Below are positions 38,898-48,262 of a stretch of DNA of 64,000 bases, in pieces. Position 1 is the first letter of the stretch, and the number at the start of each line of letters is the position of its first letter. The notes beneath the pieces were generated by a model. The model did not search any database. It saw only the letters and a list, made by a program, of their open reading frames with translations, and had not been told where the DNA came from. A program made the position numbers and the translations under genes. Source of the stretch: an uncultured Acidimicrobiaceae bacterium (lineage in GTDB: Bacteria > Actinomycetota > Acidimicrobiia > Acidimicrobiales > Bog-793); NCBI GenBank assembly GCA_963831155.1, contig CAWHOY010000007.1, positions 68,800 to 132,799 of the forward strand. The letters run 5' to 3'.

Positions 38898-39263
38898 CGC
38901 CCCTACGGACGGGGCTTGGGTGCAGCAGACCTCGCACGGTCGGAGGCGCGCAAGCGCGTCGTCACCCCGACCATGTCACCCACTGTCCCCGAATTCAGAT
39001 GGATTTCCGATTGGGGCATCGCCCGGAAGTGCCGTACTGCGTCACACTCCCGGCGACGCTCCTATCAGTTGTCAAGCCCTGTGAGTCTTCGGGAGTGGAA
39101 ACAGCGGGCAGAACAATGAAGAGCCACTCCGTGTCGGAGGGCAAGCTCTTATCAAGCCACGCGTTTCGAAGAAGTGTGTGCCGGATCGTGGATCGGCGAG
39201 TCGCCGGAAAGTCAACCCGTGTGGGCGACAGTTAGGTGATGAGCCAGATCCACGGTCGCGGGC

Positions 39264-40310
39264 TCAGCCGCGAGGTAAGTGGCGATACACCTCGCGGGCT
39301 ACGTAGCGCTTCAAGATGCGGATGACCTCGGGCTTCGTTCGTCCTTCTTTCACGCGCCGCTCGAAGTAGGCAGTCGTCTCTGGGTCGTGGGCGATGCGCA
39401 CCATGACGATGCGCCACAGCGCGCTGTTCGCTTGACGATCACCACCGCTGTCGAGTCGAAAACGACCGGTGCTCTTTCCCGATGACGCTGGGATCGGCGA
39501 CACTCCGCACAAGTGTGCGAAGGCGGCTTCTGAATGGAGGCGCTCGGGATTGTCGCCGGCGGTCACCAATAGCGCGGCGGCGGTGTCGGGGCCGACTCCG
39601 AACAAAGCGAGCAACTCAGGAGCGGTGACTGCAAGAAGCGAGTTGATCTTCGCGTCGAGATCGGTGAGCTCTCTTTCGAGCGCTTGGATCCGACGGGCCA
39701 ACGAGGACACGGCGGCCTTCGTCGCCGCGGTGACCGGATCACTCGACTGCGCGGGGCGGAGCTTCGCTCCTTCTTTGACCAAGGCGGAGACGGTGAGGCC
39801 CTTCAGGCGACGATGGAGCACGTCGGGAGCAGTGACGACCAGGTGACGCACTTGGACGACGGCTTTGACCCGAGCCTGTCGGGCGGAGCGCTTGGCGACG
39901 AGGAGGACCCGGATCGCCTCGACTGCGCCGTCTTTTGTCTTGGCGACACTCTTTGCTCGGCCATTGAGCGCTGATCGCGCGGCTTCCACTGCATCGAGGG
40001 GATCGGACTTGCCCGACCGACGCCGTTCGGCTCGGTTCGGCCGGTCGACCTCGATGACATCGACGCCGTGACGGTGAAGAAAGCGCGCCAGCCCGGCTCG
40101 ATAAGAACCGGTTCCTTCGACACCGACTTTCCCCACCGCACCGAAGCTCTCGAGCCAGGAGAGCAAGGACTTGTAGCCGGCCGGGTTGACTTCGAACGAC
40201 TTCGTGCCGATGAGACCGCCGAGTGGATCAAGTGCGGCAGCGACGTGCACGTCGAGGTGGGTGTCGACACCACCGGTCACTCGACGCGTATCTAGCATTG
40301 TCATCGCCAT
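39264..40310 (-). CDS. IS110-family DEDD transposase/recombinase, copy A
   Basis: 348 aa. VTGGVDTHLDVHVAAALD..., VGVEGTGSY and the C-terminal SGG...RQANSALW...RYVAREVY region fit the family. Confidence 0.9.
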   Translation of the reverse strand: MAMTMLDTRRVTGGVDTHLDVHVAAALDPLGGLIGTKSFEVNPAGYKSLLSWLESFGAVGKVGVEGTGSYRAGLARFLHRHGVDVIEVDRPNRAERRRSGKSDPLDAVEAARSALNGRAKSVAKTKDGAVEAIRVLLVAKRSARQARVKAVVQVRHLVVTAPDVLHRRLKGLTVSALVKEGAKLRPAQSSDPVTAATKAAVSSLARRIQALERELTDLDAKINSLLAVTAPELLALFGVGPDTAAALLVTAGDNPERLHSEAAFAHLCGVSPIPASSGKSTGRFRLDSGGDRQANSALWRIVMVRIAHDPETTAYFERRVKEGRTKPEVIRILKRYVAREVYRHLPRG

Positions 40311-40571
40311 CCCTTCCTTTCTTCAAGCGGGATTGAGGGGTGGCACGGCCGTCCCGGATCGGAGTGACGGGTGGTCCGCCTTGTTGCTGCAAGACGGGCC
40401 AATCACCCTTGCTTCGGAACGGGACGTGCCGTTTTCAATGTGCGGCCGAAGGAGCTCAACCGACGACGACCGAGGTCGTCATCACTTCAAGTCAGGCTGA
40501 ACTCCTAGCGCTCCCGAAACTATTGAGAACCAACGAACACGCGGTGGACCCTCTGGGGCATTGTCATTGTT
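40311..40571 (-). ncRNA. candidate bridge RNA (IS110 left-end non-coding region), copy A
   Basis: The conserved structured region upstream of the recombinase has the hairpin CCGTCTTG-CAGCAA-CAAGGCGG (40377-40398). Only its loop differs from copy B. Confidence 0.35.
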
Positions 40572-46598: not shown

Positions 46599-46852
46599 AA
46601 CAATGACAATGCCCTTGAGGGTCCACCGCGTCGTTGTTGGTTCTCAATAGCTTCGGGAGCGCTGGAGCGTTTAGCAGTGATGACGACCTCGGCCATCGTC
46701 GGCTGAGCTTCCGGACCCGCACATTGAAAAACGGCACGTCCCGTTCCGAAGCAAGGGTGATTGGCCCGTCTTGAGCGAACAAGGCGGACCACCCGTCACT
46801 CCGATCCGGGACGGCCGTGCCACCCCTCAATCCCGCTTAAAGAAAGGAAGGG
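46599..46852 (+). ncRNA. candidate bridge RNA (IS110 left-end non-coding region), copy B
   Basis: Hairpin CCGTCTTG-AGCGAA-CAAGGCGG lies at 46766-46787. There is long-range pairing between GGCACGTCCCG (46733-46743) and CGGGACGGCCGTGCC (46807-21). A variable block at 46664-46720 differs from copy A. Confidence 0.35.
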
Positions 46853-47899
46853 ATGGCGATGACAATGCTAGAAGCGCCTCGCGTGACCGGTGGTGTCGAC
46901 ACCCACCTCGATGTGCACGTCGCTGCGGCACTCGACCCAGTCGGTGGCCTGCTCGACACGAAGTCGTTCGAGGTCAACCCCGCCGGCTACAAGTCGTTGC
47001 TCGCATGGCTCGAGAGCTTCGGCGAGCTCGGAAAGGTTGGTGTCGAAGGAACCGGTTCTTATGGAGCCGGACTGGCACGGTTTCTTCGCCGACAAGGTGT
47101 CAGTGTCATCGAGGTCGACCGGCCGAACCGAGCTGAACGGCGCCGATCCGGAAAGTCCGATCCCCTCGACGCAGTGGAAGCTGCCCGATCAGCGCTCAGT
47201 GGCCGAGCAAAGAGCCTCCCGAAGTCAAAAGACGGTGCGGTCGAGGCGATCCGCGTCCTCGGTGTCGCCAAGCGCTCGGCACGCCAGGCGCGGGCGAAGG
47301 CTGTCGTCCAGATGCGCCACCTCGTCATCACGGCTCCTGACGAGCTCCGTTCCAGGATGAAGGGCCTGAGTGTCCCCGCCTTGGTCAAAGAGGGAGCAAA
47401 GCTCCGCCCCTCGCGATCGGCCGATCCGGTCACCACCGCGACAAAGGCAGCCATCTCCTCGTTGGCGCACCGGATCCAGGCGCTCGAGTCCGAGCTCGCC
47501 GAACTCGACGAGATGATCACCGCTCATCTCGTTGCGACCGCGCCCGATCTGCTCGCCATGTTCGGAGTCGGTCCCCACACGGCCGCCGCTTTATTGGTGT
47601 GCGCCGGCGACAACCCCGAACGGCTCCACACAGAAGCTTCCTTCGCGCATCTTTGCGGGGTGGCACCGATCCCGGCGTCGTCGGGGAAGACCACGGGTCG
47701 TTTTCGACTCGACACAGGTGGTGATCGTCAAGCGAACAGCGCGCTGTGGCGCATTGTCATGGTGCGCATCGCCCACGACCCAAAGACGACGGCCTACTTC
47801 GAACGCCGCCTGAAAGAGGGTCGAACCAAGCGCGAGGTGATCCGCATCTTGAAGCGCTACGTCGCCCGCGAGGTCTATCGCCATCTACCTCGCGGCTGA
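46853..47899 (+). CDS. IS110-family DEDD transposase/recombinase, copy B
   Basis: 348 aa, colinear with copy A. Many substitutions are scattered throughout, so the two are clearly diverged (I estimate very roughly 80-90 % identity by eye, not computed). Confidence 0.9.
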   Translation: MAMTMLEAPRVTGGVDTHLDVHVAAALDPVGGLLDTKSFEVNPAGYKSLLAWLESFGELGKVGVEGTGSYGAGLARFLRRQGVSVIEVDRPNRAERRRSGKSDPLDAVEAARSALSGRAKSLPKSKDGAVEAIRVLGVAKRSARQARAKAVVQMRHLVITAPDELRSRMKGLSVPALVKEGAKLRPSRSADPVTTATKAAISSLAHRIQALESELAELDEMITAHLVATAPDLLAMFGVGPHTAAALLVCAGDNPERLHTEASFAHLCGVAPIPASSGKTTGRFRLDTGGDRQANSALWRIVMVRIAHDPKTTAYFERRLKEGRTKREVIRILKRYVAREVYRHLPRG

Positions 47900-48262
47900 G
47901 TCCGTGGCCGTGGGTCTGGCTCTGCCCATAACTGTCGCCCGAACGGGCTGACTTTCGCGCGACCCGCCGACCCACGGCCCGGTATTCACTTCTTCGAAAC
48001 GCGTGGCCTCATAAGAGCTTGCCCTCCGACTCGGAGTGGCTCTTCATTGTTCTGCCCGCTCCACTAAAGAAGATCACCAACGGGGCTTGACAACTGATAG
48101 GAGCGTCGCGCGCGAGCATGCGCAACTGATGCGTGGCAGAAGTGCCGATCGGTGGCAGTTCCTCCCGGAGGGGCTGTGCGGAGTTAGACACCTGTCTGAG
48201 CGCTGTGCTCTCCGTCTCAGCGGTGCCGCTGTTCCTATTACCCCAGTTCAGTAGCCATTTAG

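Follow-up and report, generated by a model that had tools for sequence, protein, structure and literature searches.

A 64,000-nt stretch of DNA from an uncultured Acidimicrobiaceae bacterium (GCA_963831155.1, contig CAWHOY010000007.1, positions 68,800-132,799 of the forward strand; here called the window) carries two copies, A and B, of a mobile element. They probably represent two subfamilies of an insertion sequence of the IS110 family that is guided by a bridge RNA and common among Acidimicrobiaceae, with ends slightly inside those read earlier from the sequence and with a sigma70-type promoter that would be assembled only when the two ends are joined in an excised circle.

The two copies and their recombinase

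Copies A (minus strand) and B (plus strand) are 89% identical, and both contain an ORF of 348 aa with the N-terminal DEDD RuvC-like domain and the C-terminal Tnp domain of IS110-family recombinases (DEDD_Tnp_IS110, PF01548, E 4e-18; Transposase_20, PF02371, E 1.5e-17). Against the NCBIfam profile NF033542, "IS110 family RNA-guided transposase", the recombinase scores 171 bits, with a cut-off of 140. The genome that contains the window (G000) has seven full copies plus three partial ones, and its sister genome G003 has more. The elements and their genes are located as follows.

46602-48107, plus strand: copy B, corrected element, AATGACAATG ... GGAGCGT plus the shared C at 48107, as placed by empty sites, the variable flank triplet and the match between guide LTG and flank
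39055-40568, minus strand: copy A, corrected element, by the same end logic as copy B
46853-47899, plus strand: copy B recombinase gene, 348 aa, from Pfam and NCBIfam profiles
40310-39264, minus strand: copy A recombinase gene, with the same Pfam domains

Ends of the mobile unit

The ends inferred in the sequence-only reading were merely the points at which the two copies stop aligning, as their similarity runs from AACAAT (46599 in B, 40571 in A) to ...GGAGCGTCGC (48109 and 39053). The shared block does begin with AACAAT, and the letters and coordinates that put TTGACA 17 nt from its other limit in both copies are accurate, yet the first three bases are target sequence and the right-hand limit marks a loss of similarity and not an element end. 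The left triplet is AAC in some copies and ACC in others, and it differs (AAC versus ACC) even between L002 (copy A) and L003, whose interiors share about 100% identity. On the right side, copies in G003 read GT-CAC and the others GT-CGC.

Uninterrupted sites follow the pattern LT-A(N)C-GC-RT. One on contig C5 of G000, ATCACCGAAC-GC-CGGTTACT, matches the right flank of a copy in G003 (L059), which reads ...GGAGCGTCGC-CGGTTACT; because it belongs to a repeat family (typically A-N-C-GC-CGG), it is treated as a paralogous uninterrupted target and not as a strict ortholog. The homolog of another insertion site (L005) is uninterrupted in G003 and reads TATCACCT-ATC-GC-GGTT, while the ortholog of the copy B site in genome G002 is empty (TAGCCGAAAAC-GCGCGAC). 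For copy A, L003, L004 and L060 of G003, the search gave no empty site, the sister-genome flanks being rearranged or absent. Since A-N-C and GC are already present in all three empty targets, the mobile unit is AATGACAATG...GGAGCGT plus one C common to target and donor, and AAC on the left (46599-46601) and GC on the right (48108-48109) are target bases, which occur at all targets because the guide RNA of the element specifies them. Empty-site comparison thus places the ends 3 nt (left) and 2 nt (right) further inside than previously called, and because the earlier calls miss by these distances, the promoter-like spacing once taken as independent support for them lends none. The CA dinucleotide reported as common to both left flanks is indeed present, at -3/-2 in both copies.

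The target rules can be written as N7-A-N-C / GCCGG or GCGCG, with TGCCCATAAC|GCGCG as left target and right flank of copy B and ATCACCTAAC|GCCGG of copy A. Junctions and empty sites display a single shared C and, as is usual in the IS110 family, neither terminal inverted repeats nor a target-site duplication; a search for a two-nucleotide core identical in donor and target returned only this C. As a separate candidate, GTAGCCCAT, the left flank of three B-type copies, was considered as a repeat and dismissed, as it occurs in the genome at chance frequency.

A bridge RNA in the right end

When ten right ends from three subfamilies are folded to a consensus, two stem-enclosed internal loops appear directly 3' of the stop codon, with 37 pairs, four of which show compensatory changes. 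The loops hold four guides in the register listed here.

47902-48059, plus strand: copy B bridge RNA with two internal loops, from the consensus fold and guide/flank matches
About 39261-39104, minus strand: copy A bridge RNA
47923-47932, plus strand: LTG, 5' side of the first loop, TGCCCATAAC in copy B, matching the left flank in the same sense
47953-47963, plus strand: RTG loop, 3' side of the first loop, reverse complement of GT-C-GCGCG (copy B) or GT-C-GCCGG (others)
48011-48020, plus strand: LDG, 5' side of the second loop, AUAAGAGC(G/U)U, matching the last ten element bases
48041-48053, plus strand: RDG loop, 3' side of the second loop, reverse complement of A(A/C/U)C-A(A/G)UGA, matching the left junction

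RTG matches the final two bases of the element, the shared C and five bases of the right flank, while RDG covaries with the left end. When flank and end probes were compared with the whole element, the best matches fell in the right-end loops and none in the left end. A covariation diagonal links flank positions -9, -5 and -3 with right-end positions 32, 36 and 38, and the left end has no such diagonal with the flanks; because subfamily structure confounds the mutual-information scan, the right-end diagonal is its one informative result. Among 33 non-redundant elements, the 9 nt to the left of AATGA, ATTGA or AGTGA match the element's own LTG at 7.76 of 9 positions, compared with 5.86 of 9 for non-cognate pairs, and the last three flank bases (AAC, TAC, TTC, ACC or ATC) change in step with LTG. 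In L004, for example, LTG is ACCCCTAACC and the flank of the copy GCCCCTAACC.

An Rfam scan of 36-51 kb in the window returned a tRNA-Val only and no match to a bridge-RNA family. The element has what IS110-family members are known for, a two-loop bridge or seek RNA with guides that match flanks and ends, and this predicted RNA follows the recombinase gene immediately beyond its stop codon, within the right end, as in the IS1111 group.

A structured leader in the left end

46602-46852, plus strand: copy B left end, conserved structured 5' leader, alifold structure with compensatory changes, no guides

The 251-nt left end (46602-46852 in copy B; 40568-40311, minus strand, in copy A) is more conserved than the coding region and, by alifold, forms a long closed structure in which pairs show compensatory changes between subfamilies. 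Target or donor guides were sought in it and none were found; with neither guide complementarity nor flank covariation, the left end was discarded as a candidate bridge RNA. It may instead be a leader that controls translation of the recombinase. The junction promoter had been described as facing a bridge-RNA/recombinase region, and of these two it does face the recombinase gene, behind the structured leader, while the bridge RNA lies downstream of the stop codon.

The start of the recombinase gene (ATGGCGATGACAATGC) includes ATGACAATGC at 46859-46868, a repeat of the opening bases of the element (AATGACAATGC, 46602-46612). TGACAA also lies inside the right-end block TTGACAAC, so that the same short word stands at three functionally loaded places.

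A promoter predicted at the circle junction

48087-48092, plus strand: copy B TTGACA, predicted -35 half, 15 nt from the shared C
39075-39070, minus strand: copy A TTGACA, predicted -35 half
46605-46610, plus strand: copy B GACAAT, predicted -10 half, 18 nt from TTGACA in the predicted junction (17 without the shared C)
40565-40560, minus strand: copy A GACAAT, predicted -10 half

Joining the right end to the left end would give ..GATAGGAGCGT(C)AATGACAATG.., in which the junction reads TTGACA ACTGATAGGAGCGTC AAT GACAAT. Sigma70-like sites were called with at least 4/6 matches in each hexamer, at least 9/12 overall, and A2 and T6 in the second hexamer, using the E. coli consensus; promoter rules for Acidimicrobiia are not established. 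By this E. coli standard, the predicted -35 is perfect and the -10 matches at 4/6 positions with A2 and T6 kept. All 10 full copies, from three subfamilies and down to 72% identity, would form TTGACA-N18-GACAAT (N17 without the shared C), and TTGACA is exact in every copy of the own genome and of G003. The N18 spacing, with the C retained, is inferred, since donor and target visibly have one base in common here, in contrast to the CT of IS621. Circle or tandem junctions between right and left ends were sought in metagenome contigs and in 401 genomes of the order and none were found, so the junction sequence is predicted and not observed.

The idea that a right-end -35 and a left-end -10 meet only in the excised circle appears to hold and is strengthened by the conservation of the pair, with a -10 of GACAAT at N18 instead of AACAAT at N17. 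In the earlier version, the element spans 46599-48109 and its circle contains TTGACA-N17-AACAAT (..GTCGCAACAATG..), with a spacing of exactly the optimal 17 nt and a pair that passes the sigma70 criteria where the flank happens to be AAC. However, the first three bases of that -10 belong to the flank: AAC and GC are present in uninterrupted targets, the triplet varies with the LTG of each element across the family, and it differs between L002 and L003, which are the same inside. With ACC, as in L003-L006, the -10 test fails and no site is formed; the earlier ends yield a site in 5 of the 10 copies only, those flanked by AAC. This version is very improbable.

Conservation extends to relatives. 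Acidimicrobiaceae genomes contributed 80 related loci; 67 of them have the right-end motif, and 66 of these 67 right ends contain an exact TTGACA. When a pattern was used to locate left ends, TTGACA-N17/18-GA(C/T)A(A/C)T resulted in 56 of 57 elements. Because that pattern itself contains the hexamer, the family-wide count was redone with left ends located by the element's own LTG, and 45 of 51 elements give the site, with GATACT in 31, GACAAT in 13 and GATAAT in one. Judged by sequence alone, the features of a hybrid promoter are thus found in all copies and in 45/51 relatives, and the promoter-like pair across the junction occurs far more often than chance would allow.

In the GATACT subfamily, the left end is altered (ATTGATACTTCT in place of AATGACAATGCC) and many right ends are one base shorter (GGAGCTC), yet TTGACA, A2, T6 and the 17-18 nt spacing are all kept. 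Since TTGACA stays constant while the left end changes, it is not maintained by pairing with the left end, and the pattern fits a promoter better than an inverted-repeat or pairing constraint. It could be argued that TTGACA and GACAAT/GATACT are recombination signals, either recombinase contacts or donor-site architecture, with no role in transcription. Neither block is more than about 25 nt from the crossover, and the DBL guides pair with the terminal 10 nt of the right end (through LDG) and the initial 5 nt of the left end (the GA of GACAAT lies within the RD segment paired by RDG). The TGACAA direct repeat is found at both ends and once more at the start codon of the recombinase gene, and ISPpu9 dispenses with a junction promoter (PMC12288879). 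Yet the promoter consensus is matched outside the guide-paired parts, with a perfect TTGACA and with A2 and T6 kept while positions 3 and 5 vary; the 17-18 nt spacing persists even where the right end loses a base; and the integrated element is otherwise devoid of sigma70-like sites. A purely recombinational role is therefore unlikely, while promoter and recombination roles of the two blocks could coexist.

The integrated copy B region has no sigma70-like site on either strand, with 0.2 expected per 1.9 kb, and none was called in 10 integrated copies, again on both strands, or in 57 related integrated elements. This also bears on whether TTGACA is the -35 of an outward hybrid promoter that activates genes beside the integrated element. 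Outward-directed -35 boxes are found close to an end of many insertion sequences, and TTGACA is directed outward, 15 nt from the end. However, the right flank is GCCGG or GCGCG in nearly all insertions, no -10 follows TTGACA at 16-18 nt because this guide-specified flank is G+C-rich, and no site was called across any right junction, which makes activation of neighboring genes scarcely credible.

Comparison with characterized IS110-family elements

Hybrid junction promoters are documented in the family, as the sequence-only reading had stated. The circle junctions of IS621, ISEc11, ISEc21 and ISPpu10 are active hybrid promoters that combine a right-end -35 with a left-end -10, and integrated IS621 is weakly expressed by read-through, while its circle raises expression and favours insertion (PMC11208160, PMC11187229, PMC12288879, PMC13626964). 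The ISPpu10 minicircle junction is a strong promoter of this kind, with -35 from the right end and -10 from the left (PMC12288879), and its arrangement is the one predicted here, although neither ISPpu10 nor ISPpu9 is closely related to the present element. ISPpu9 circles form without a hybrid promoter (PMC12288879); the feature is therefore not universal in the family.

ISEc11, of the IS1111 group, encodes a seekRNA in non-coding sequence downstream of its gene, and abutment of its ends in the circle creates the promoter Pjunc (PMC11187229; Prosseda et al. 2006 as cited in PMC13626964). Like the present element, for which the junction promoter is a prediction, it combines a DEDD recombinase, a guide RNA downstream of the gene and no target duplication, and a bridge RNA after the gene is the position known for the IS1111 group (PMC11208160, PMC11187229). 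In contrast, the left end of ISEc11 is short and subterminal inverted repeats are present, whereas here the left end is 251 nt long, conserved and structured, and a convincing subterminal repeat is lacking. The short left and long right end of the IS1111 group is not seen either, with 251 nt on the left and 208 nt on the right, and its subterminal inverted repeats (7-17 bp) have as counterpart an imperfect match found by eye, TGACAATGCCC versus GGGCTTGACA, which is lost in the ATTGATACTTCT subfamily.

With IS621 the element shares a two-loop bridge RNA with the four guides in the same order, in which left guides have top-strand sense and right guides are complementary, and the handshake guides of IS621 resemble the right-hand guides here, which reach 2 nt into the non-cognate partner (PMC11208160, PMC11208158). 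A junction promoter across the core, with low or no promoter activity when integrated, would be a further likeness (PMC11208160, PMC11208158, PMC13626964), predicted in the present case. Unlike here, where it lies about 1.3 kb downstream, after the gene, the bridge RNA of IS621 is in the left end behind the junction promoter, and in IS621 donor and target have the same 2-nt core, CT, whereas one C is visibly shared here (donor ..GT-C-AA.., target ..AA-C-GC..). Similarity at the protein level is weak (E 4e-6, C-terminal domain only); the solved relatives ISCro4 and IS621 both give weak matches to the recombinase.

Proposed mechanism

In the proposed cycle, rare excision would produce a circle, released when the left junction (LT-..A-C-AATGA) recombines with the right junction (..GAGCGT-C-GC..). 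The circle would join ...GGAGCGT-C to AATGACAATG, with the shared C retained, and so create TTGACA-N18-GACAAT. From this junction, a single transcript could be driven that comprises the 251-nt leader, the recombinase gene and the 3' bridge RNA, and transcription switched on in the circle would favour re-insertion. Once integrated, the element would form no hybrid promoter with host DNA, because the guide-specified right flank is G+C-rich. As a whole, this account of a guide-RNA-directed element with an excised circle that builds a sigma70-type junction promoter is likely to be correct.

Atypical insertions and remnants

Several insertions depart from the target rules. In L006 (G000 C6:29012-30525; C-AATGGAATGGG) and L131 (C-AGTGACGCC), the right flank is similar to the left end of the element itself and not to the right target that the guide specifies, and both flanks of L110 are donor-like (GATAGGAGAT | ... 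| C-ATTGGGG). These three may be natural products of half-matched or donor-loop-guided recombination. L006 and L007 (G000 C3) have an identical left flank of at least 40 nt with different interiors, and contig C3 ends inside the element; the common flank could reflect either a duplicated segment or an assembly variant. L005 (G000 C6:756277-757792) is chimeric: its left part and flank fit the guide of the A/L003 type (9/10), and its right part, bridge RNA included, is of the L004 type. It is probably a product of recombination between copies.

Truncated B-type left ends of 405 and 185 nt (L009, G000 C5:338284-338688; L010, G000 C6:716644-716828) retain the left junction of copy B, GTAGCCCAT-AAC. 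Since a full copy (L061) occupies the L010 locus in G003, L010 is an old insertion that was later partly deleted. At L057 on contig C3 of G003, the ortholog of the left flank of copy A, a 12-nt remnant, CAATGACAATGC, is followed by unrelated sequence, which points to an old insertion with subsequent deletion or rearrangement. Finally, an intergenic repeat family (G000 C5:706481-706611, with paralogs at C5:365837, C7:13639 and C6:752639) starts with A-N-C-GC-CGGTTAC and ends with ...GCCAGTCGGAGATTGTGGACG, and looks like a natural repeated target of these elements.

Implications for the family

Comparing copies overshoots the ends of RNA-guided insertion sequences, because the guide RNA makes all flanks alike. 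Here, the overshoot moved the predicted -10 box and obscured the position of the bridge RNA, and correcting the annotation is the main gain. Exact ends, target rules and a predicted junction sequence are now given for bridge recombinases that form a large, uncharacterised family in Acidimicrobiaceae. It is possible, as a tentative proposal, that this lineage represents a distinct architectural type, with a guide RNA after the gene, a long leader, a one-base core and hints of loop-swapped or half-matched recombination. Junction promoters are already established in the IS110 family, to which this element would add another case, and the predicted reconstitution of a promoter is conserved in Acidimicrobiaceae despite the position of the bridge RNA at the distal end of the transcript.
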